Below are positions 1 to 44,036 of a stretch of 44,212 nucleotides of DNA, piece after piece. Under the pieces are notes generated by a model. It was given only the letters and a program-made list of their open reading frames with translations. It was not told the origin of the DNA and searched no databases. The stretch comes from Escherichia phage Henu5_1: sequence record PQ133007; one strand, 5' to 3'. The position numbers and the translations under genes were made by a program. The stretch's first letter is position 1; each line of letters starts with the position of its first letter.

Positions 1-330
1 ATGAATGTAAACGACGCAATCGAAATGTTAACGAAGACTGTTTGCAGTGAGACAAGCCGGTCATGGGCTTATACCGATGCCGTGGGGGCGGTGTTATTTG
101 AAATCGAACGACTGCGCAGTGTCGAAAAAGAATTACGCGCCAGGCTGGAATTGCTCAACGGCACGGCAGCAAGCAAGCTGCAAAAACACAATGAAGAAAT
201 GGAAGAATACAAAAAGCAGGTTATCCGTTTGCGCGCCGAGGGAAAATCCTGGGCGATGATTGCCGAGTTAACCGGAATTAATCAGAGCACAGTGCGCTCC
301 TGGGTACGCAATAATAAAACTTCTAAGTAA
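1..330 (+). CDS. HTH-domain DNA-binding protein (may be 5'-truncated by window edge)
   Basis: ORF begins at base 1; C-terminal helix-turn-helix-like segment SWAMIAELTGINQSTVRSWV; a GAGGG RBS lies at the window 3' end if the genome is circularly permuted. Confidence 0.5.
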   Translation: MNVNDAIEMLTKTVCSETSRSWAYTDAVGAVLFEIERLRSVEKELRARLELLNGTAASKLQKHNEEMEEYKKQVIRLRAEGKSWAMIAELTGINQSTVRSWVRNNKTSK

Positions 331-340
331 GGCCACGGCA

Positions 341-2605
341 ATGAGCTTAATTAAATTCGCTGTAACACGACCCGCTAAAAAAGGCGAAAAAGCCAGGGCG
401 GAAAACTTCCAGATGACTACCGAAGAGTTTTTCGAATTTATCAATGACGCGAAAGAAATCTCCTCGGTGCATATCAACAAAACGGAAGATAAAGCCGAGT
501 ACGCCCGCCGCAAGCGTAAGGCCGATGGCATTGTGGCTTATACCAGTGATGGGCTGCGCCGCAAGACCAGTGCGGTGGACCGTTCGATCCTGTTCTTCGA
601 TATCGACCGTACCGACACCCGCACCCTACGCCGCTGCCGTAAGGCTTTCGTCGATGCGGGGCTGGAGCACGTATTCCATACAACAACCGGCGACCGCCAC
701 CCGCTGAAAGGCGGCACGCGTTGCGCACGTTTCCTTGTGCTCACGGACAAGCCTGTCTCGGCGGAAGACCTGGGCCGTGTCCAGTATGCGCTATTACACC
801 AACTGGGTCTGTCAGATGTGGACTTCGACGATTGCACGAAAGACACAAACCGCCTGATGTACCTGCCACACCAGCAGTCTGTTATTAAGTGCCACTATGG
901 CAAGCGCGCCCGCGTCCGTCGTCTGCTCCGCCTGGCGGATAAGCTGGGCGTGGAGAAAGAGGAAGTCCGCCGCGAGCTTACTCAGGGCGACGACGCAGTG
1001 GCAGACGGCATTCTGGACTGGTGCTTCCAGGCAGGATTCGAGGAGTTATCTTCCGGTCGCGGTTATGAAGTGCCGTGCCCGAACGAACATCTGCACAGCG
1101 GCGAAGGGTCGACGGCTATCATGGTCAAGGATGGCGAGATCCGTTTCAAGTGTATGCACACCGGTAACGAGTGTTGCTCGGAACTGAATAGACACCAGCA
1201 CCTGGCGCTACGTCTTATCGGGATCCCGGACCACCTGAACGTCGAGCCACACAATATGTCCCGTAAGCAAATCGCCGCCATCCTTCCGGGGCTGGACGAC
1301 GAGGAAGTCGAATCCTTATACGAACATATTGTTGATGCGGTTGGCGACGGCGAAGAATACGGCGTGTGCACCGATGCGGATCTGGATAACGAGCCGGTCG
1401 CGCTGTTCAGTAAGCACGACCCGATTATCGAGGGGTTGATTAACTTTAAATCGACCTGGTACATGGCGGGTGAGTCGAATATCGGTAAGTCTTTCTATGT
1501 GCTGGGCCAAATGGGCGCGGTTGCCGCAGGGATCCCGTTCGGCGGTGCGAAGGTCGTCCAGTCTCATTGCTTCTATTTCGACGCGGAAGGTGGTGAAGCC
1601 TCCAACCAGCGTAAGGAAGCATTGCAGATTAAATACGAGCACGACCTGGACAAGCTGCACATTATCGATCTGCAGTCACGCGGCTGGGATATCACCAGCA
1701 AGTCCGGCTTGCGTGAAGTTATCAGCTTTATCAACCGCACCGCTAACGGCGAACCGGTTGGCCTGGTGGCGTTCGACTCACTAAACCAGACTGTTGCGTT
1801 GCGGTCCGCTGATGCTAAACCGTTCGACGAGAACAACGCCAGCGATATGGGTGAAGTGGTCAAAGCGCTGAAGGCCATTGCGGAAAATACAGGAGGCAGT
1901 GCGGGCGTAATTCACCACCCGGCAAAAGGTGCAAACGGCAGCAGAACCCCACGCGGGTCCGGCGCGCTGCATGGTGCTGTCGATTCCGCTTTCTTCCTGG
2001 AACAGCCGGACGACAACCAGCCCGGACAATTGAACCTGTATCATGAGAAGTCCCGTAACGGCATCAAACAAGCGCCGCGCGGCTTCGTCCTGCTCAAGTG
2101 CAAGGTGAAGGTGGATCTCCGCAAGTCAGAAGCGTTCGCGTCGCACCAGTCCACCAGCACCGGGCCGGACTTCGGCGACGTTGTTGCCGGTTGGGACGTC
2201 AAACCAATTGCGTCCACGCCACGCGACGAGACTCTGTACCTCGTACCGGTCGCCCTGGCACCGTTCGCTATAGAACAGGCGAAGGCCGCGGGCAAAGCAG
2301 CAGTTAAGGAAGAGAACACCGCCGGTCCGCGCAACGAAAAAGAGAAAGTGCTTTATGCGGCCCTGGAAAAACTGATGGAAGATAACCCGAACCATACCGG
2401 CTTCAGTAAATCGGCAATTGTCCGCCAGGCTGGACTCGCGAAGGGTGGCACTTCGACGAAGGCAATCGACGATATGGTGGACCGCGGCGTGATTGGTTTC
2501 TATACAGATCCGCACACCGGGGCCATCTATGGGTCGTCGAATTTAGTCATCAAATCGGATATTCCCATAACGCTTTCGGCGACCGATGACGATCTAAAAG
2601 ATTAA
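341..2605 (+). CDS. DNA primase/helicase (primase-polymerase-like N-terminus plus RecA-like P-loop ATPase)
   Basis: 754 aa ORF; P-loop GESNIGKS in C-terminal half; size and layout typical of phage primase-helicase fusions. Confidence 0.65.
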   Translation: MSLIKFAVTRPAKKGEKARAENFQMTTEEFFEFINDAKEISSVHINKTEDKAEYARRKRKADGIVAYTSDGLRRKTSAVDRSILFFDIDRTDTRTLRRCRKAFVDAGLEHVFHTTTGDRHPLKGGTRCARFLVLTDKPVSAEDLGRVQYALLHQLGLSDVDFDDCTKDTNRLMYLPHQQSVIKCHYGKRARVRRLLRLADKLGVEKEEVRRELTQGDDAVADGILDWCFQAGFEELSSGRGYEVPCPNEHLHSGEGSTAIMVKDGEIRFKCMHTGNECCSELNRHQHLALRLIGIPDHLNVEPHNMSRKQIAAILPGLDDEEVESLYEHIVDAVGDGEEYGVCTDADLDNEPVALFSKHDPIIEGLINFKSTWYMAGESNIGKSFYVLGQMGAVAAGIPFGGAKVVQSHCFYFDAEGGEASNQRKEALQIKYEHDLDKLHIIDLQSRGWDITSKSGLREVISFINRTANGEPVGLVAFDSLNQTVALRSADAKPFDENNASDMGEVVKALKAIAENTGGSAGVIHHPAKGANGSRTPRGSGALHGAVDSAFFLEQPDDNQPGQLNLYHEKSRNGIKQAPRGFVLLKCKVKVDLRKSEAFASHQSTSTGPDFGDVVAGWDVKPIASTPRDETLYLVPVALAPFAIEQAKAAGKAAVKEENTAGPRNEKEKVLYAALEKLMEDNPNHTGFSKSAIVRQAGLAKGGTSTKAIDDMVDRGVIGFYTDPHTGAIYGSSNLVIKSDIPITLSATDDDLKD

Positions 2606-2664: not shown

Positions 2665-2870
2665 TAGTGTGAATATAATGCATAGTTATGCAATAAAACT
2701 GCATAAAGTAAGCGGGACAAAAAGCGGGACAAACCATGGGCGGGACAAAGCGGGACGGCACCCCTGTCCCGCCCGGATGACGCGGCCTGGCGAGGAGCGG
2801 GACAGGCGGGACAACTCCCAGTCTTTCAGACTAGACGGGGGTCAACGGCCCCCCTCGTCTGAGACTGCAT
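2665..2870. repeat. Iteron array: 7 copies of GCGGGACA/TGTCCCGC plus conserved hairpin (copy 1 of duplicated module)
   Basis: GCGGGACA at about 2712, 2724, 2740, 2750, 2797, 2806 and inverted TGTCCCGC at 2765; about 80 percent identical to 19495-19690. Confidence 0.7.
2819..2867. promoter_or_regulatory. Conserved 49-nt imperfect palindrome / stem-loop (copy 1)
   Basis: cagtct...agacggggg-loop-cccccctcgtct...agactg; outer and inner stems complementary; no adjacent T-run so not a canonical intrinsic terminator. Confidence 0.5.
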
Positions 2871-3026
2871 AAAATCCGGGATTGCAAAATACACGGCAGC
2901 ATGTCGCGGATTGCGGTCGTCGCTGAACTAGGCAACCAATGCGAGATGCAGAAAGCGGTGTGGAAAATGCAGTTTGCAGTTGCAACGGATAGCGATCGAC
3001 TTTTTCATGCGCATGATTAATATTGG

Positions 3027-3055
3027 TTGCATTCGTGCCAGCACCCTGCTAGATT
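3027..3055 (+). promoter_or_regulatory. Putative sigma70-like promoter (TTGCAT-17-TAGATT) overlapping two ATTGGTTGCA motifs
   Basis: -35 TTGCAT lies inside ATTGGTTGCAT; second motif copy overlaps -10/+1; about 25 nt upstream of GGAGG RBS of ORF 3083. Confidence 0.4.
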
Positions 3056-3082
3056 GGTTGCACACCAACAGGAGGGCGGAAC

Positions 3083-3869: not shown

Positions 3870-4483
3870 AATTACTATTCCGCCGCAAGCATGATGGTCG
3901 CATCCTGAAGCCGATCCAGACCCTGGATTCCTACGTCCGCTTACAAAACGCGGCAGGCAATCGGGTGTGGCGGGCGCCGAAACACACGCTGCCGCAGTTC
4001 TTCGACGTACTCACTCACGATATCGAGCGCGGCGATGTGCTGCGTGATATTCGCGACGGCAGTATGTGGGTCGTCGAGTATGTCGGGCTTCATGGCCTGC
4101 GTATGCAAAACCGCAAGGATGGCGTCGCCGGTATGACTTACTTCGGCCTCGTAAATTACGAGCGAGTGGGTCGCAAATACAGCCTTCGTGACCGCCAGCC
4201 GCACGAGCGCGCGAACGTCATAGCGGATGCCGTTAACCGCGTAACGCATGATGTGGCGCAAAAGACGCGTGTGGAGTTCCGCAAGTCACAGCCAGCCTAT
4301 GCAACCTACGACGCGAGCAAAGTGATGGATCCGATACGCCAGGCGACGCATGCGATTATTAATCGCTTTGATGCCGTGACGAATGCACAGCGCCATGCGC
4401 AGGAATACGGTTTTGGATTCATCCGGGTGGAACGAGACGGCAGCATGAAAGCCATCGACCCGCGCTCGGTGATTCTGAAATGA
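3866..4483 (+). CDS. Hypothetical protein
   Basis: 205 aa track ORF, translationally coupled to neighbours. Confidence 0.65.
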   Translation: MKLLFRRKHDGRILKPIQTLDSYVRLQNAAGNRVWRAPKHTLPQFFDVLTHDIERGDVLRDIRDGSMWVVEYVGLHGLRMQNRKDGVAGMTYFGLVNYERVGRKYSLRDRQPHERANVIADAVNRVTHDVAQKTRVEFRKSQPAYATYDASKVMDPIRQATHAIINRFDAVTNAQRHAQEYGFGFIRVERDGSMKAIDPRSVILK

Positions 4484-6722: not shown

Positions 6723-7865
6723 ATGCACCCGCAAACTAAAATTACCGATGAGCAATTGATCGCAGAAATTCAGGCAGGGACTACGGTTAAAGAGATTGCG
6801 AAGAAATACGGGATTGCCCTGCGCAATGTCTATATGCGGAAAGCCCGCCTATCGAAAAAAGGAATTGGGCACGGCAACGATGCCGTAATCCGCAAGCGCG
6901 TTGCCGATGGCTTCGGCGTTAAGCGCGTATCGGCCCTGGTGCGCGGCAATGGCGAAGAGGTCATGTCGTGGGTCATCACTGAGCAGGACAAGGAGCGCCA
7001 ACTCGAAGCTATGCGCGCTGTTGTCGATGGCATGAACAGCGAAATCACACCGGCAGCGCCAGTAAAAGCCCCGCCAGTCCCGATCCAGGCGCTCGACTTG
7101 CTAAACCTGTACACCGTGTCAGACTTCCACCTGGGCATGTTGGCATGGGGCGAGGAGACTGGAGAAGACTGGGATATGGCGATCGCCGAAGACCTGTTCT
7201 ACCGCTGGTTTGTCGAAGCCTTCGCCCGCGCACCGGACGCAGGCACTGCCGTGATCAATATCCTCGGCGATATGGCGCACTTTGATAGCCTTGATGCCGT
7301 CACCCCCGCCAGCGGGCACGTACTGGATGCCGACACTCGATACCAGAAGTTGGTCCGCTATATGATACGCATGGTGCGCAACGTCGTAGACCTGGCGCTG
7401 CAAAAACACCATAAAGTCAAACTGCTAATCGTCCAGGGTAATCATGACGAGTCGGGCATGATTTGGCTTGCTGAGATGTTCAACACGCTGTACGAGAACG
7501 AGCCGCGCGTCGATGTGGATACGTCCCCGGACGTCTACAAAATGGTGCAGCACGGTAAGACCACGCTGTTTTTCCACCACGGGCACAAAGCGCGATTCGA
7601 TGCTATCGAGCAGGTTATGATCGCTAAATTCAGACAGGCGTTCGGGTCGAGCGAATACAGCTACGCGCACGTAGGTCATTTGCACCACCAGAAGATTGTC
7701 GAGTCTCGCAACATGATTGTTGAACAGCACCGGACGCTCGCAGCGAAAGACGCCTACGCCAGCCGCGGCGGCTGGATGAGCGGTCGCAGTGCCAACGTCA
7801 TTACCTACAGCGCCAACTACGGCGAAGTAGCGCGCTTAACCATTAGCCCGGAAATGTTGAAGTAA
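6723..7865 (+). CDS. HTH domain fused to calcineurin-like metallophosphoesterase
   Basis: N-terminal HTH-like TVKEIAKKYGIALRNVYMRKARL; phosphoesterase motifs DFH, GDMAHFD, GNHDE, HHGH, GHLHH. Confidence 0.6.
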   Translation: MHPQTKITDEQLIAEIQAGTTVKEIAKKYGIALRNVYMRKARLSKKGIGHGNDAVIRKRVADGFGVKRVSALVRGNGEEVMSWVITEQDKERQLEAMRAVVDGMNSEITPAAPVKAPPVPIQALDLLNLYTVSDFHLGMLAWGEETGEDWDMAIAEDLFYRWFVEAFARAPDAGTAVINILGDMAHFDSLDAVTPASGHVLDADTRYQKLVRYMIRMVRNVVDLALQKHHKVKLLIVQGNHDESGMIWLAEMFNTLYENEPRVDVDTSPDVYKMVQHGKTTLFFHHGHKARFDAIEQVMIAKFRQAFGSSEYSYAHVGHLHHQKIVESRNMIVEQHRTLAAKDAYASRGGWMSGRSANVITYSANYGEVARLTISPEMLK

Positions 7866-12871: not shown

Positions 12872-12983
12872 CCCGTCTGCGGACCCCGACGAGGATTTGA
12901 TGATTGACGTGAAAAATATGGAATGCGGGGCGAAGCTAAGGGCGCAGGTGCTGGAGTTGCAGCAAATAATTAAGGGGCCGTAA
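12753..12983 (+). CDS. o-spanin candidate (Rz1-like lipoprotein), overlapping i-spanin gene out of frame
   Basis: Signal peptide with lipobox LSAC, proline-rich mature region; starts inside 12542-12871 in another frame. Confidence 0.5.
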   Translation: MLRALTALIVVLMLSACGSSNVPLMPLTESALRPPCKFDNPSADPDEDLMIDVKNMECGAKLRAQVLELQQIIKGP

Positions 12984-12994
12984 TGGCCCCTTTT
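12972..12994. terminator. Bidirectional terminator hairpin
   Basis: AAGGGGCC-GTAAT-GGCCCCTT, with flanking T-run on the plus strand and A-run (T-run on minus); sits between convergent genes ending 12983 and 12997. Confidence 0.55.
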
Positions 12995-12996
12995 CG

Positions 12997-13761
12997 TTAT
13001 CGCGGAATGCCGCAAATCTCGTTGAGTGTTTTCACGTCCAGCGCCACTGCCGTGGATTTTGGCTTGTCCGGGTATGGGATGAATTGCTCAACTTCAGGCC
13101 ATGCCTTAATCAGCTTCTTGTCAGTATTGTGCAGGTCCAATACACCGGTAACGGTGAGTTTGAACGAATCATACTTCGCGCGCAACTCGCGACGGGCCTT
13201 GTCGTTGCGGTCCAGGCGCTTACAGAAGTCATGGTCCGCCGGGTAGTCTACGCGACCGCGTGGGAGATATATCGGCAGCGCTTTCCCGTCCTCGTCCACT
13301 TCGCACACTGACGCAAGCATAACCTCTTCGAACCCCGGTACGATATCGCCGAGATCGGGGGATAGCTTATTCATGTATTTATATTCCCAGTATCCGCGAT
13401 GTACGCGGTATCGGTAGCCGTCACCGCTCAAGGACAAGGTGCGAACATTTCCGCCTGCGTTGATTTCGAAAGCGGCGTCGTAAACGCTGCCGATACTTTT
13501 CGGGCGGTCGGTGTTATAACTATATGTCGCCTTGTTGGAGTAGACGCTGACGCCGTACATCTGCGACTGGTCATCGCGGATTAACAGGATATGCTCGCGT
13601 AGCGCGGCGAATGTGCGAATGCCGTCCGGCATACAGTCTAGCGTGATTGCGTACGCCAGGTCGCGAGAGTCCATCATAATTGTTTTGGCTTCGGTAGCGA
13701 TTTCGTGGTCGCGCAGGATGTTAGCCAGGATCTGATTTTTAATGTCTTTCGTCAGTCTCAT
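12997..13761 (-). CDS. Hypothetical protein, reverse-oriented gene inside the structural module (moron candidate)
   Basis: 254 aa from ATG at 13761 (GAGGA RBS) within track ORF 12997-13806; own promoter upstream; no recognisable motif. Confidence 0.6.
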   Translation of the reverse strand: MRLTKDIKNQILANILRDHEIATEAKTIMMDSRDLAYAITLDCMPDGIRTFAALREHILLIRDDQSQMYGVSVYSNKATYSYNTDRPKSIGSVYDAAFEINAGGNVRTLSLSGDGYRYRVHRGYWEYKYMNKLSPDLGDIVPGFEEVMLASVCEVDEDGKALPIYLPRGRVDYPADHDFCKRLDRNDKARRELRAKYDSFKLTVTGVLDLHNTDKKLIKAWPEVEQFIPYPDKPKSTAVALDVKTLNEICGIPR

Positions 13762-13790
13762 TTTTATGTCCTCGTTGTTGGTGTGCAACC

Positions 13791-13819
13791 AATATATTGC
13801 AACCAACCCCGCAATGCAA
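13791..13819 (-). promoter_or_regulatory. Putative promoter (TTGCAT-17-TATATT) with GCAACCAA motifs
   Basis: Minus-strand -35/-10 read from reverse complement; two motif copies at about 13784-13808. Confidence 0.4.
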
Positions 13820-15821: not shown

Positions 15822-15845
15822 GGCGGGCTTATGCCCGCCTTTTTT
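15822..15845 (+). terminator. Rho-independent terminator after capsid gene
   Basis: GGCGGGC-TTAT-GCCCGCC followed by TTTTTT. Confidence 0.7.
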
Positions 15846-15860
15846 ATAGGAGTGAATACA

Positions 15861-18653: not shown

Positions 18654-18677
18654 GGGGCCAGTACGGCCCCTTTTTTT
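18654..18677 (+). terminator. Rho-independent terminator after major tail gene
   Basis: GGGGCC-AGTAC-GGCCCC followed by TTTTTTT. Confidence 0.7.
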
Positions 18678-18693
18678 ATTGGAGAATACCACA

Positions 18694-19374: not shown

Positions 19375-19690
19375 GCGGGACAGGCGGGATGTCCCGTTTT
19401 GTCCCGCCACCATTAAACCGCATATATACTCACTTTCATTGCATAAACTAAAAGCGGGACGAGGGTGCTGTCCCGATCTGTCCCGCACCTTAAAAGTGAA
19501 TAGCTATGTGGTTTTTCTGCATAAAACAAACGGGACAGAAAGCGGGACAGAATGAGGCGGGACAAAGCGGGACAGCACCCCTGTCCCCGTCAGTGCTGCC
19601 GCGGGTTTTAGCCGATCGGGACAGGCGGGACAAAGCCCAGTCTTTCAGACTAGACGGGGGTCGATAGCCCCCCTCGTCTGAGACTGAATA
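19375..19690. repeat. GGGACA/TGTCCC repeat module (copy 2), about 12 copies plus conserved hairpin 19638-19686
   Basis: Direct and inverted GCGGGACA copies; 19495-19690 aligns with 2665-2870. Confidence 0.7.
19376..19400 (+). terminator. Rho-independent terminator built from GGGACA inverted repeat
   Basis: CGGGACA-GGCGGGA-TGTCCCG followed by TTTT directly after stop at 19370. Confidence 0.5.
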
Positions 19691-19754
19691 AGGTTTGTTT
19701 TAAATTCGCTGATACAATGACCGACGGCAACTGCATAAAAAGGGGGACTGCATA

Positions 19755-29858: not shown

Positions 29859-29887
29859 AGTATTGCACCGCTCAACCAAGAATGCAA
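29859..29887 (-). promoter_or_regulatory. Putative promoter (TTGCAT-17-AATACT) with ATTGGTTGCAT motif
   Basis: -35 formed by motif copy at 29882-29893 read on minus strand. Confidence 0.4.
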
Positions 29888-29908
29888 CCAATTCATGAGG
29901 ATTCAGCT

Positions 29909-31702
29909 ATGGCAGCGGGTACACTATCCGTAACGAATAACAGCAAGGCGGTAGTCGGTGTCGGCACGACGTTCACCGCGTTTAAAGCTGGCGACTTCTT
30001 AACGCTGGTGGTGGGGCAAGTCCCTTACACTGTTGCTATCGCGTCCGTCGAAAGCGACACCGCGCTTACGCTGGTGCTGCCGTTCGACGGCCCCACGGCA
30101 ACCGGCCTTGCCTGGGATGGCGTTAAGCGCGATACCATGTCACTGGCAACGATGGGCGTAACAGTACAGGCACAGAAAGCGTTGCGCTTGATGCTCGCGG
30201 ATGAAAACAACTGGCGTGCAATCTTCGGCGACGCTGAAGAGATCACCGTTACGCTGCCCAACGGGCAAGTTATGCAGGGTATGTCATGGGGCTACCTGTC
30301 GCAATTGATGAAGCAAATTGACCCCGTCGAGATGCGCAACCTGCAACAACAAGCCGCTGCATCTGAAGCCGCCGCGCAAGGATACCGGAGCGAGGCCGAA
30401 GGATTCAAGAATGAGACGGCTGGTATTCGCGACGCCACCAATCAGATTAAGGCGGATACGCTGGCGATCCACGACGCTACCGATGCGATCAAGACGCAAA
30501 CCAACCAGATTAAGACTGATACGCAGGCCATCAAGGACCAGACGAACCAGATCAAGACTGACACCGGCCTTATCCGCGACGAGGCCAATACGGCGAAGGC
30601 GGACGCGCAAGCGGCGCGCGACGCGGCGCGGGGATTTCGCGACGAGGCCGAACAATTCAAGAATGAGATCGACCCGTCGAAATTTTTGGTAAAGGGCAAC
30701 AACCTTAGCGATGTTACCGACCCCGCGGCAGCGCGTAGCCACTTAGGCATCGGGCCAGACGATTCCATTAACTTAGCGGGTCTGGTAACGGAAGGCGGCA
30801 TATCCGCAGGCCGTAACACATGGGATGGGTCTAACTGGGGCAGCAGCGCCATTACATCGGCGTTTGCTGTCATGTCCCCCGATGGGAATTCCCAGCCGGG
30901 AATATACGTGCGCCCAAGCAACGGCGCGCCGGGGTACGCCGGTATGTGGTTGTATGATGAGGGTCTAAATAAATGGGGCACAGCGTCGAGGATAGCGGGT
31001 CAGCGTCTTATCGCAGAAGGCTACCAAACCGGCTGGGATATACCAAATAACTACGGGGAAAGCGGCGTATGGCTGACAGGCGTCGGTAATAACGACGGCG
31101 GCTGGGTCCCGGCTATTTCTTGGCTATCCCAATCAAGCGGCGGTTATCCGATCCGGGCTACGTGGGGGCTAATCGCACAAGGCACGACGAACTGGCCCCG
31201 CGCAGTATTGCGTTGCCGAGGGGATGGCGAAAACTGGACAAACTTTGAATTTGTTGTAAACGCCTGTGATATTCAGGTCAGTGGTACATTTGGCGCGTAC
31301 ACGTTCCAGAAAGCGCCTACGTCCGACCGCGACTTAAAGCATGACATTAAGTACACGGAAGGGAAGGAAAGCTACGACCGGGTTATGCAGTGGCTGCCAA
31401 CAATGTTTAAGTATAAGGGGTCCGAAATCCAGCGCTACGGCCTTATCGCGCAGGATCTGGTTAAAATCGACCCACAATACGTGAAGATTATTCCCGGCGC
31501 GCTTAAAGACCCGGATCTGGTAGGTACGGAAGGATTCAACGCGGATGACGGCGACTACTACGACGATACACTGGCACTTGACGGTAATGTCATATTAACC
31601 GACATGGCATGTGCGATGGTGTTCATGGGGCGTAAGGTGGAAGATATGCAGAAAGAACTGGAGGAATTGAAAGCTGCCGTAGCTGCGCTGACTAAAGCGT
31701 GA
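29909..31702 (+). CDS. Tail fibre with C-terminal intramolecular chaperone (peptidase S74-like) domain
   Basis: C-terminal SDRDLKHDIKY...GLIAQDL signature of self-cleaving chaperone domain; central heptad-like repeats IKxDTxAIxDxTNQ; ATG 29909 with GAGGA RBS. Confidence 0.7.
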   Translation: MAAGTLSVTNNSKAVVGVGTTFTAFKAGDFLTLVVGQVPYTVAIASVESDTALTLVLPFDGPTATGLAWDGVKRDTMSLATMGVTVQAQKALRLMLADENNWRAIFGDAEEITVTLPNGQVMQGMSWGYLSQLMKQIDPVEMRNLQQQAAASEAAAQGYRSEAEGFKNETAGIRDATNQIKADTLAIHDATDAIKTQTNQIKTDTQAIKDQTNQIKTDTGLIRDEANTAKADAQAARDAARGFRDEAEQFKNEIDPSKFLVKGNNLSDVTDPAAARSHLGIGPDDSINLAGLVTEGGISAGRNTWDGSNWGSSAITSAFAVMSPDGNSQPGIYVRPSNGAPGYAGMWLYDEGLNKWGTASRIAGQRLIAEGYQTGWDIPNNYGESGVWLTGVGNNDGGWVPAISWLSQSSGGYPIRATWGLIAQGTTNWPRAVLRCRGDGENWTNFEFVVNACDIQVSGTFGAYTFQKAPTSDRDLKHDIKYTEGKESYDRVMQWLPTMFKYKGSEIQRYGLIAQDLVKIDPQYVKIIPGALKDPDLVGTEGFNADDGDYYDDTLALDGNVILTDMACAMVFMGRKVEDMQKELEELKAAVAALTKA

Positions 31703-31706
31703 TGCG

Positions 31707-31730
31707 AAGGGGCCGCACGGCCCCTTTTTT
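31707..31730 (+). terminator. Rho-independent terminator at the junction of the two arms
   Basis: GGGGCCG-CAC-GGCCCC followed by TTTTTT; overlaps stop of convergent minus gene. Confidence 0.6.
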
Positions 31731-32304
31731 AGTTTGAGTTTTCCCAGTCCATTTTGCGCCGAACCAGCGGGCTTTCGTAGTATTCCTTTCCTTCCACTTC
31801 CACTAATGGCCAATCGTTCACGATCACGTATGGCTCTGCTATATCCTCAATAACACCGTGCGCACTATGCTGCCCGAACGACACACCGACCCGGATAACA
31901 CCGGCAACTCGACGGGCTAGATACTCGCGGGCACAACGTGCTTCCACCAGTCCGCGACGGATGCCGCTGGTAGCTTTTACCTCGTATGTCCAGACGGCAT
32001 CAATCATATGTTCGCGGAAGTCAGGGCCGGACTTAACCTTGCGCTTGCCAACCATGATAATATCGCCGCGGTCGATAGTGTTAGCGCTAAACAGGCCGGT
32101 ACGCATTAGCAAACCTTGCGGGATACAGCTACGCCCGCCCGCCTGCCCTTCGAGGTACATGCCTGCAAACATTTCACCCAGCACACCGACGAGTCTGCTT
32201 TGCTTGCACGCGTCGGACTTTAAGCGCCACTGGTCAAACTCGATGCTTGCAATCATTGCCGCCAGGTGGAATTGTTTACCGGTTATTTCATATTCGCCGT
32301 ACAT
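31729..32304 (-). CDS. Hypothetical protein
   Basis: 191 aa, ATG 32304 with GAGGGA RBS. Confidence 0.6.
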   Translation of the reverse strand: MYGEYEITGKQFHLAAMIASIEFDQWRLKSDACKQSRLVGVLGEMFAGMYLEGQAGGRSCIPQGLLMRTGLFSANTIDRGDIIMVGKRKVKSGPDFREHMIDAVWTYEVKATSGIRRGLVEARCAREYLARRVAGVIRVGVSFGQHSAHGVIEDIAEPYVIVNDWPLVEVEGKEYYESPLVRRKMDWENSN

Positions 32305-34557: not shown

Positions 34558-34586
34558 AATATAATGCAACCAATCTAGTTATGCAA
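34558..34586 (-). promoter_or_regulatory. Putative promoter (TTGCAT-17-TATATT) built on two ATTGGTTGCAT motifs
   Basis: -35 inside motif at 34581-34592; second motif 34564-34574 overlaps spacer and -10. Confidence 0.5.
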
Positions 34587-34590
34587 CCAA

Positions 34591-34914
34591 TTACGCATAA
34601 AAATTTGGGTCGCGCGCTACGTCTACCAGATACAGGTTACTAATGCGGTTGCCGTAGTGGCCTGGTGTGCGCTGACGGCACACTACGGCATAGCCTGGAG
34701 GGATTGTATTGCCAGTCTCAATAATCCACGCCACGCGTGCGCCAGACAGCGTCTTGCCGTTGCATTCGATACGAGTACCGCCATCGGCAGTATTGAGGTT
34801 GCCAATCTTGCAGCCGGTTGACTTCAGGCGGATAACGCCGGTCTTGCTGTCGTAGGAAAAAAGCTGATTGGTCATTGCCACTGAAAAGTCGATGGCGTCG
34901 AATGTAGTATTCAT
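34591..34914 (-). CDS. HNH homing-endonuclease-like protein (NUMOD4/HNH_3-like, possibly degenerate)
   Basis: N-terminal FSYDSKTG..IRLK motif and GNRISNLYLV resembling the DNR..NL element; catalytic His not obvious. Confidence 0.4.
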   Translation of the reverse strand: MNTTFDAIDFSVAMTNQLFSYDSKTGVIRLKSTGCKIGNLNTADGGTRIECNGKTLSGARVAWIIETGNTIPPGYAVVCRQRTPGHYGNRISNLYLVDVARDPNFYA

Positions 34915-40302: not shown

Positions 40303-41034
40303 TTAACGGCGGCGACGTTTACGTGGTGCTTCGTCTTCGTCGTCTTCGTCCTCATCTTCGTCATCGCGTGGCTTTCGACGTTTACGAGGTTTCTCGTCTT
40401 CGTCATCATCGTCGTCATCGCGGCGCTTGGACTTTTTGGACTTGCGCGGGCTTTCATCTTCGTCATCGTTATCCAGGTCTTCGTCTGAGCACGAAGACCC
40501 GCCACCGCCGAAGGCTTCGCCGTCATCACGGAAGCGCAGACCCAAAAGACCAGCACCGAGTCCCTTGCCGTTGGTATTGTTCCACGCCCAGATATCGAGT
40601 GACACGTTGCAATAACAACCGGAGTAGATCTCCTGGCCTTCGATCTCGTCGCCTTCTACGGTCAGACCTTGTTCCGTCTGCTTCTCGCCGAGTGACGTTT
40701 GAATGATCGGCTGTTTGAACGATTTGGCGTTGATGTACAACATGCCTTCGAATTCTTCGGTTACTTCGTCGCGCTCGTCACCATCGCGAACTGCGCATTC
40801 CTTAGAATCCTGGGCGTAGTGGCGGTCCATCCACTTATCAGCATTCTTCTCGGATTTCAGCTTGTCGGTGAGCACTGCGCGCGCTGCCGCTTCCACTTTG
40901 TCCACCTGCGGATCTTCTTTATCCAGAAGAATCACTGCACGGTATGCCGGTTTTTGACCATCCTGTTTAGGGGTATCGCGTTCCCAAATTTTAAGGAAAC
41001 ATACGCGCACATTTTTCAGGTTGACTTTAGCCAT
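40303..41034 (-). CDS. Putative ssDNA-binding protein (DUF2815-like) with extreme acidic/basic C-terminal tail
   Basis: ATG 41034 with GAGGA RBS; N-terminus MAKVNLKNVRV; C-terminal 60 aa alternate D/E runs with KR clusters; family assignment from memory. Confidence 0.45.
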   Translation of the reverse strand: MAKVNLKNVRVCFLKIWERDTPKQDGQKPAYRAVILLDKEDPQVDKVEAAARAVLTDKLKSEKNADKWMDRHYAQDSKECAVRDGDERDEVTEEFEGMLYINAKSFKQPIIQTSLGEKQTEQGLTVEGDEIEGQEIYSGCYCNVSLDIWAWNNTNGKGLGAGLLGLRFRDDGEAFGGGGSSCSDEDLDNDDEDESPRKSKKSKRRDDDDDDEDEKPRKRRKPRDDEDEDEDDEDEAPRKRRRR

Positions 41035-41099
41035 TTTCCAATTCCTCATTTTCACATGTATCGGGGTTATTATGAGCCGCCCCGTTCGGCTTGGTTGCC

Positions 41100-41128
41100 A
41101 ATTTACTTGGTTGCGCCTAAGCGGTCAA
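41100..41128 (-). promoter_or_regulatory. Putative promoter (TTGACC-17-TAAATT) with CAACCAAG motifs
   Basis: Motif copies 41091-41100 and 41107-41115 in spacer and just downstream of -10. Confidence 0.4.
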
Positions 41129-44007: not shown

Positions 44008-44036
44008 ATATTAGATTGGTTGCAGAAGGGAGTCAA
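44008..44036 (-). promoter_or_regulatory. Strong sigma70-like promoter (TTGACT-17-TAATAT) for the minus arm
   Basis: Near-consensus hexamers with 17-bp spacer containing TGCAACCAAT; about 200 nt upstream of ATG 43811. Confidence 0.5.

Follow-up and report, generated by a model that had tools for sequence, protein, structure and literature searches.

Genomic setting of a duplicated module

The window analyzed here is the whole 44,212-nt sequence of Escherichia phage Henu5_1 (PQ133007), a complete 44.2-kb genome of a Dhillonvirus-type siphophage infecting E. coli, and the element in question is a 49-nt hairpin that occurs in it twice, each time as the 3' end of a duplicated module of ~195 nt (Table 1). 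Module B (2679-2872) starts directly after the stop codon (2605) of the helicase-primase gene, with its hairpin 214 nt past that stop; module A (19497-19691, with an upstream limit that reaches 19375) lies 16.8 kb away, where it fills the 385 nt that separate the tail assembly chaperone genes (PF08748, DUF1799) from the tape-measure gene. Read 5' to 3', a module consists of an AT-rich stretch with the palindrome TGCATAGTTATGCA and CTGCATAAA, an array of GCGGGACA octamers (iterons), the hairpin, and a -10-like element. Judged from sequence, conservation, and gene context, the hairpin most likely marks a place where the phage primase-helicase would start replication, rather than an RNA signal.

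Genes from position 1 to ~31.7 kb are read rightward and comprise those for a helix-turn-helix (HTH) protein and the helicase-primase, small genes, and the lysis, terminase, head, and tail genes; the leftward block from 44.0 to 31.7 kb holds replication genes. A 661-nt segment spanning the first hairpin matches 264 phage records, the best being Escherichia phage JL1 (95%), with HK578, SSL-2009a, and Sodalis phage SO-1 also among them, and no match to the module was found in PLSDB plasmids or E. coli genomes. The record of SO-1, a congeneric phage (GQ502199), annotates the same two loci as repeat_region features, "region A" and "region B," and describes them as similar to each other and as composed of repeats that are direct, inverted, or palindromic; its region B matches at 90% over the 661 nt and at 89% over the 202-nt module. 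The loci were thus already noticed in 2009, in an annotation that is descriptive, names no demonstrated function, and does not single out the hairpin.

Other labels at module B are probably annotation artifacts. Several GenBank records place a "hypothetical protein" over it, and the CS16 record places a "terminator" there, which sits on an inverted GCGGGAC/GTCCCGC pair and not on the 49-nt hairpin. In the window, an 87-aa open reading frame (ORF) overlapping module B (2609-2872, TTG start) was judged spurious, being built of repeats and differing by indels between the copies. A pac site or a mobile element was likewise dismissed, as the modules hold two fixed positions, have no terminal repeats, and are distant from the terminase gene.

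Fold and conservation of the hairpin

The two copies are identical at 46 of 49 positions, and all three substitutions fall in the apical loop, just as an earlier note on this sequence had reported. Both fold stably as RNA (-25.5 and -25.3 kcal/mol, against shuffle means of -14.4 and -13.5 kcal/mol; z -4.4 and -4.5, with none of 200 shuffles folding as well) and as DNA (-12.7 and -12.1 kcal/mol; z -3.8 and -4.2), and in both hairpins the minus strand folds equally well. Even when up to three mismatches are allowed, the left arm occurs exactly twice in the window, with 0 occurrences expected by chance. The predicted pairing gives a three-helix hairpin, in which an outer CAGTC(T)/(A)GACTG helix, a middle AGAC/GTCT helix, and an apical helix of G5 with C5-6 are separated by internal loops. 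The left arm has two copies of AGAC, which allows alternative registers; the continuous inner stem described in the earlier note is but one of them.

Neither copy is followed by a T-run and no terminator-like call falls on either, so the element was rightly set apart from intrinsic terminators at the outset. Scans of both regions for sigma-70 promoters and terminators returned nothing at the hairpins, the sole call in these regions being a weak one, terminator-like, on the minus strand at a pair of inverted iterons. Genuine terminators of this genome look different from the hairpins: a family in the late operon has the form GGGCC-loop-GGCCCC followed by a T-run (12975-13004, 15823-15852, 18655-18684, and 31709-31738).

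Between the two modules, identity is 76% over the 140 nt upstream of the hairpins and 50% over the 40 nt downstream, and the probability of finding no change in the 42 stem positions at the flank divergence rate is ~1e-5. Some identity between the copies reflects common descent, since the hairpins belong to a larger duplicated module; the stems are much better conserved than their surroundings. The earlier note missed this iteron module and its place after the helicase-primase gene, which are the decisive context. At least two module-matching places are present in each of 158 matching phage records, and the hairpin arms form the most conserved block among 17 distinct module A and 24 distinct module B sequences, variation at the level of the genus lying in the loop, the lengths of the G and C runs, and the internal loop. 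From differences confined to the loop it had been argued that selection acts on structure. The arms are indeed more constrained than the loop, both in the genome and in relatives, but the argument is weakened because Dhillonvirus stems are invariant and the left arm is kept as a sequence, not merely as a pairing partner.

It could be supposed that the module is a neutral duplication, or that its copies are held alike by gene conversion, the hairpin having no function of its own. The hairpin does belong to a larger duplicated segment, and in Dhillonvirus LM40P1 (L073 11724-11772 and 40079-40128) both hairpins share an internal-loop change, TCGTCT to CCGTCT, a sign that the copies evolve in concert or are co-selected through a shared partner. 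We consider such neutrality very improbable, given the excess conservation of the stems over the flanks, the presence of both copies in 158 of 158 matching records, and a module architecture that is kept at 43-69% helicase-primase identity despite different iterons and even different hairpins. Direct repeats 16.8 kb apart invite deletion, so that their retention implies selection.

A second possibility is that the hairpin acts as RNA within long rightward transcripts, as an RNase III-type processing site or a 3'/5' stabilizer that divides the polycistronic mRNA at two points, past the helicase-primase gene and at the junction of tail chaperone and tape-measure genes. The fold is stable, its ~18-20 imperfect base pairs with internal loops are of a size compatible with an RNase III site, and both copies lie between cistrons on the coding strand with no terminator called between them and the upstream genes. 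Like T7-type RNase III sites and intrinsic terminators, the element is a GC-rich imperfect intergenic stem-loop on the transcribed strand; unlike them, it has no U-tract and no strand asymmetry and is always linked to DNA repeat arrays. Over 24 variants the mean stabilities of the plus and minus strands are -25.3 and -25.6 kcal/mol, the minus strand being the more stable in 14; three variants (L005, L099, L101) favor the plus strand through G.U pairs and one (L099, with A.C on the plus) favors the minus, so that comparison of G.U with A.C reveals no asymmetry of the kind that would separate RNA from DNA function. Equal stability is expected of a DNA palindrome, in which the transcript strand is not singled out.

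An Rfam 15 scan of the whole window found no family at or above the gathering threshold, and the left-arm sequence is conserved far beyond the needs of pairing. An RNA role would also leave unexplained why the hairpin is constantly linked to lineage-specific DNA repeats and why the array tracks the helicase-primase, and if the -10-like elements beyond the hairpins are real promoters, the hairpin lies outside the transcripts that they start. We regard an RNA role as decidedly improbable. The suggestion of an RNA processing site thus goes unsupported for an element that always accompanies DNA-binding-site repeats beside a replication gene, and the cruciform-forming DNA element that had been named along with it is the one that the evidence favors.

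Table 1. Features of the two modules and of two genes next to module B (window coordinates)
Feature	Position	Strand	Description
Small HTH protein	1..330	+	109 aa; HTH_23 / sigma-70 region 4-like; just upstream of the helicase-primase gene
Helicase-primase, proposed trans-acting partner	341..2605	+	754 aa; PF13481, phrog_3228
Helicase-primase parts			archaeo-eukaryotic primase (AEP) PrimPol, aa 1-200; Zn motif C246...H285; RepA-like AAA_25 helicase, aa 357-531
C-terminal winged helix	2333-2560		aa ~665-740; predicted fold
AT-rich segment, module B	2665..2711		27-37% GC; upstream of the iterons; palindrome TGCATAGTTATGCA (2679-2692), CTGCATAAA
Iteron array, module B	2712..2813		seven GCGGGACA-type octamers
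Octamers, module B	2712-2719, 2724-2731, 2740-2747, 2750-2757, 2765-2772, 2797-2804, 2806-2813		2750-2757 is GCGGGACG; 2765-2772 is inverted
Hairpin, module B	2819..2867		49-nt imperfect palindrome CAGTCTTTCAGACTAGACGGGGG-TCAACGG-CCCCCCTCGTCTGAGACTG; folds on both strands, z ~-4
Weaker putative -10-like element TTGCAAAAT	2882..2890	+	equivalent place past hairpin B; moderately conserved
Iteron arrays, module A	19375-19407, 19454-19486, 19530-19632 (span 19375..19632)		direct and inverted
AT-rich segment, module A	19495..19526		TGAATAGCTATGTG, then CTGCATAAA
Hairpin, module A	19638..19686		49 nt; apical loop TCGATAG
Extended -10-like element TGATACAAT	19710..19718	+	24 nt past hairpin A; 37 nt before the tape-measure ATG (19755)

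Iterons and AT-rich segments

The heptamer CGGGACA occurs 22 times in the genome against 6.6 expected, and 17 of the 22 copies lie in the two modules; module A holds 11 exact copies plus variants. The iterons are both direct and inverted, mostly 9-16 nt apart, and constitute the clustered short repeats in a noncoding region that are looked for in an iteron origin; the hairpin begins 5 nt beyond the last of them. Such origins also have an adjacent AT-rich, easily melted segment, and here GC content falls to 27-33% at 2665-2709, 19420-19449, 19495-19524, and 19675-19719, against 51-58% in genome-wide 1-kb windows. The AT-rich segment of module B is a candidate unwinding element and/or operator.

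The palindromes that open the modules, TGCATAGTTATGCA and TGAATAGCTATGTG (the latter at 19497-19510), are conserved in relatives, with related sites at L068 12720-12752 and at L070 4405-4420 and 4826-4841. They resemble GTGAATAGTTCAC, which in Kagunavirus lies between promoter-like TTGACA and TATAGT elements, beside a divergent HTH gene annotated in the Jersey record; in our reading this GTGAATAGTTCAC would be an operator.

Dense CGGGAC(A) clusters with G/C-run palindromes were also observed in unrelated GC-rich IMG/VR contigs (L030 2950-3080; L059, reverse complement, 650-860; L048 4100-4330; L013/L060; L022 6330-6720), and in L030, L059, and L048 the clusters lie directly 3' of AAA_25 helicase genes. 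It was the search pattern that picked out these contigs, so chance may account for the octamer they share; the helicase-adjacent position is not explained by that pattern, and it hints that a CGGGACA array with a G/C-run palindrome beside AAA_25 helicase genes could be a widespread design. Comparison of winged helices between the window protein and the helicases of the CGGGACA-bearing contigs found no sequence similarity. Near the repeat arrays of several unrelated phage contigs there are also tracts of alternating purines and pyrimidines, (CACG)n among them, with the potential to form Z-DNA (L075 12590-12615; L013/L060, reverse complement, ~4290-4350; L022 6540-6610).

Iteron classes and hairpin changes in more distant relatives

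More distant relatives were retrieved by protein homology, which leaves the sample unbiased with respect to DNA and makes it the informative one, and their module A loci were anchored on the tape-measure gene. In the window, the gap that follows the helicase-primase gene on its 3' side holds an iteron cluster, and the same is true of ten relatives with 43-86% protein identity (L067, L068, and L075-L082). The class of repeat at this place differs between lineages: it is GCGGGACA in L075, L079, L081, and L082, GTGTGGCA in L076 and L077, GTGTGCCA in L078, CGGTGCCA in L080, ACTCGCAA in Klebsiella phage VLCpiS11a, and GGGGGAGA in Salmonella phage St162. Relatives at 32-35% identity (L070-L072; fEg-Eco19, K1ind2, Jersey) have no iteron array in that gap, which holds a divergent HTH gene or promoter-like repeats instead.

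At 51-61% identity of the tape-measure protein, lineages still have module A where the chaperone and tape-measure genes meet, with nine GTGTGGCA repeats in L101, repeats of GCGGGAC type in L099, and AAAGGGAT in L100. Wherever both modules could be read (the window, SO-1, LM40P1, VLCpiS11a, and the contig of L076 and L098), they carry the same iteron class. The position of the second module varies, from between the tail chaperone and tape-measure genes in Dhillonvirus to between the head morphogenesis and spanin genes in VLCpiS11a, where the chaperone/tape-measure junction has no gap. The end of L076 (12340-12370) and the start of L098 (1-27) belong to one 27.6-kb metagenomic contig with the same GGGGTGTGGCAAGTGTGGCAGCACACC at both ends; this contig opens and closes in the same GTGTGGCA repeat, and its being bounded by modules indicates that the two modules break assemblies.

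The hairpin survives these switches of iteron class. Six of seven protein-anchored lineages keep the left arm, (C)AGTCTTTCAGACTAGACGGGG, without change from its second base on; the right arm is variable (GTCT-G/A/TC-AGACTG, GGACTG, GTCC). The apical helix changes and yet stays paired, as GGGGG/CCCCC, as GACGGG/CCCGTC in L077, and as CGGGAG/CTCCCG in L078, where a 15-bp stem is retained through a switch of partner. The spacing from AGAC to GTCT ranges from 19 to 27 nt across lineages, and the loop and internal loops vary as well. VLCpiS11a has different hairpins of ~65 nt at the same place in its two modules (-22.5 and -19.8 kcal/mol as DNA), and their outer stems differ by two compensatory pairs. 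This variation in spacing, apical helix, and compensating pairs argues for a structure paired within one strand and against a duplex site recognized by a symmetric dimer.

The helicase-primase as candidate iteron binder

The protein encoded immediately 5' of module B combines four parts. Its N-terminal AEP PrimPol is predicted by AlphaFold 2 (AF2; pLDDT 83), has the PrimPol of cyanophage S-2L as its best PDB match (6zp9_A, E 1.8e-5), and keeps the DxD, H, and D motifs invariant. A Cys/His zinc motif comes next. The helicase falls in PF13481, with a weak PDB match to RepA of RSF1010 (1g8y). The predicted C-terminal winged helix (AF2 pLDDT 85-91) is matched by Foldseek to the winged helices of MarR, LexA, H1, and ORC.

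Within Dhillonvirus the winged helix is 91-99% identical, even where the remainder of the protein is 76% identical; between iteron classes it is 43-63% identical and the remainder 60-81%. The ratio of winged-helix to remainder identity averages 1.01 for pairs of the same class and 0.77 for pairs of different classes (nominal p 4e-6, the pairs not being independent). Residues of helices 2 and 3 follow the class, FSKSAI...KGGTxT occurring with GCGGGACA, and FSRRAI...GGSSTKP and others elsewhere. This tracking of iteron class, suggestive but not conclusive, makes the winged helix a candidate binder. When homologues were sought with the C-terminal 151 aa alone, one fragment was returned, and among the loci of relatives, which are partial, no protein common only to genomes of the same iteron class was found.

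The neighboring 109-aa HTH protein was also considered and was rejected as iteron binder: four iteron classes share one and the same recognition helix, STVRSWVRN, and two genomes of the window's class have a different one. A separate motif, ATTGGTTGC(A/C), has 23 occurrences, mostly intergenic and often paired at distances of 14-35 nt; sites include 2617-2626, 2652-2661, 3022-3031, 3053-3062, 13785-13807(-), 34566-34591(-), 41090-41116, and 44015-44023. It often supplies a -35-like TTGCAT, as in TTGCAT-17-TATATT at 34589(-) and TTGCAT-17-TAGATT at 3026-3054, and it is retained in all relatives, whatever their iteron class. This constancy makes it a candidate site for the 109-aa HTH protein, with its invariant recognition helix.

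Promoter-like elements

The element TGATACAAT beyond hairpin A is invariant in 17 distinct module A sequences; it went uncalled in the consensus promoter scan because it has no -35 element. Its counterpart past hairpin B, TTGCAAAAT, may be a -10-like element, and neither region contains sigma-70 hexamers, -35 and -10, at a spacing of 16-18 nt. These elements raise the possibility that each module is an activator-dependent promoter region, in which the arrays would be upstream sites for a phage regulator, perhaps the helicase-primase itself, and the dyad, centered ~53-63 bp upstream of a -35-less promoter, would be part of an activator or architectural site. In that role the modules would activate the gene block that follows the helicase-primase gene and raise the expression of the tape-measure and tail genes.

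Several observations suit such a role. Both modules are co-oriented with the downstream genes, -10-like elements lie past the hairpins of module B and VLCpiS11a as well as near the tape-measure start, and, with no canonical sigma-70 promoter present, any promoter here would need help; the opening palindrome is related to the presumed Kagunavirus promoter operator, and module B stands at the boundary between replication genes and a later gene block. A dimeric protein binding duplex DNA, however, would not tolerate an AGAC-GTCT spacing of 19-27 nt and differing apical helices, and the compensatory stem differences between the VLCpiS11a modules fit a structure, not a shared sequence-specific site. 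The obvious neighboring regulator does not co-vary with the repeats, and the separate sigma-70-like promoter at 3026-3054 already lies ahead of the genes after module B. We think it unlikely that the modules are promoter regions in this sense, although the two functions are compatible, origins often being coupled to promoters.

A putative bipartite iteron origin

Repeats that adjoin a replication gene, a winged helix that tracks their class, a second array of the same class, AT-rich flanks, and a conserved hairpin together suggest replication, and with moderate confidence we propose a bipartite iteron-type origin in which the hairpin, acting as DNA, is the structure for loading or priming. From the anatomy of the modules, their conservation, the concerted iteron switching where both can be read, the domain architecture, and the statistical co-variation of winged helix and class, we infer binding of the iterons, unwinding, priming, and origin function itself. 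The C-terminal winged helix of the AEP-primase/RepA-like-helicase would bind the iterons, and multimerization on the array, perhaps accompanied by a loop joining the modules in the manner of P4 ori/crr, would melt the neighboring DNA. The imperfect palindrome could then extrude as a hairpin or cruciform, and this structure, its left arm nearly invariant, would be the loading and/or priming site for the helicase and primase domains, by analogy with the RSF1010 hairpins ssiA and ssiB and with the pRN1 stem-loop origin.

Each of these known systems shares part of the arrangement. In P4 the repeats are octamers that lie in two separate cis regions, ori and crr, which to our knowledge have not been described as holding a conserved long hairpin. 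The window genome likewise has two cis regions with the same repeats, octamer arrays 16.8 kb apart that switch class together, and a single polypeptide with primase, helicase, and C-terminal winged helix, in which origin binding is a property of P4 alpha and a prediction here. The proteins differ in that P4 alpha has a Toprim (bacterial-type) primase and a superfamily 3 (SF3) helicase, in place of the AEP PrimPol and RepA-like AAA_25 helicase of the window. It is through its winged helix that the P4 alpha protein binds the origin repeats (PMC4234260).

The RSF1010 system divides the work: RepC binds the iterons, RepA unwinds, and priming at the ssiA and ssiB hairpins falls to the AEP-like RepB' (PMC8567376); its mechanism is also summarized in PMC4234260. 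The oriV of this IncQ plasmid resembles the modules in that its iterons adjoin hairpins, which there become active once the DNA is unwound, and in its use of a RepA-family helicase and an AEP-like primase, which in RSF1010 recognizes a specific sequence at the hairpin (PMC8567376). As at such single-strand initiation (ssi) sites, the modules place next to their iterons a hairpin that is stable in single-stranded DNA (-12 to -13 kcal/mol, on both strands). They depart from RSF1010 in fusing into one protein three functions that are carried by three separate proteins there. The ssi elements are two distinct 40-nt sequences on opposite strands, whereas each module has one 49-nt palindrome, both strands of which fold, and there is no sequence similarity between those elements and the present hairpin.

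In pRN1, a stem-loop 3' of a rep gene that encodes AEP, helicase, and winged helix is required for replication and must have an intact stem, and similar stem-loops have been noted 3' of replication genes of Bordetella phages (PMC4234260). The window has this arrangement, an AEP primase and helicase with a C-terminal winged helix and a stem-loop immediately 3' of the gene, as in pRN1 and Bordetella phage BIP-1, with a helicase that is RepA-like and not SF3. The stem-loops of pRN1 and BIP-1 are ~100 nt and have no iterons; those of the window are 49 nt, follow iterons (seven of them in module B), and are present twice.

Several results weigh against an origin. GC skew has no discontinuity at either module and gives no origin signal; in our reading it seems to reflect the strands on which the genes lie. 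With its single cluster, St162 shows that the two-module layout is not universal. Transcription runs in the direction of both modules in the window, a gene begins shortly beyond each, and a conserved -10-like element lies between, as would equally be expected of a promoter region. Every Foldseek match of the winged helix has E >0.01, its co-variation with iteron class is statistical, with non-independent pairs and overlapping groups, and the window and L075, which share an iteron, give a ratio of only 0.81. RNAalifold on 21 hairpin variants gave 18 pairs with a covariation term of ~0, because the stems are invariant within Dhillonvirus, and structure-preserving changes appeared only in L077, L078, and VLCpiS11a. 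The literature on Dhillonvirus, SO-1, and related phages yielded no functional study, origin mapping, or binding or transcript maps.

Other features of the genome

A 63-nt tandem duplication lies at 30437-30558, within a 606-aa tail fiber-like ORF (29882-31702), and an array of the 9-nt repeat TCGTCTTCG at 40313-40420, within long minus-strand ORFs. The 380-aa product of 6723-7865 is a homologue of SO-1 gp58, annotated as "putative transcriptional regulator"; it matches calcineurin-like phosphoesterase and DNA repair exonuclease families, and with no match to a DNA-binding domain it makes no obvious regulator.

Implications

The kind of element discussed here, an iteron origin with a hairpin, is already known; what appears to be new is the link to the winged helix of a helicase-primase, the concerted switching of iterons, and the persistence of the hairpin across iteron classes. 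More tentatively, Dhillonvirus and related Guernseyvirinae-like siphophages might possess an undescribed origin architecture, with one protein, two distant iteron arrays, and a nearly invariant hairpin as the shared structure for priming or loading; array specificity would switch fast along with the winged helix, so that co-infecting phages would fall into replicon classes resembling incompatibility groups.

Should the modules be origins, they would show where replication starts in a common group of E. coli phages; members of the genus are in the BASEL collection and have also been isolated in phage-therapy-oriented studies. The determinant of origin specificity would then be the C-terminal winged helix of the helicase-primase, and the rapid, concerted iteron switching between close relatives would amount to a natural experiment in changing replicon specificity. 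The modules would be obvious parts for phage-dependent replicons or for resistance plasmids that act as origin decoys. Iteron class may govern whether co-infecting relatives can share replication proteins.

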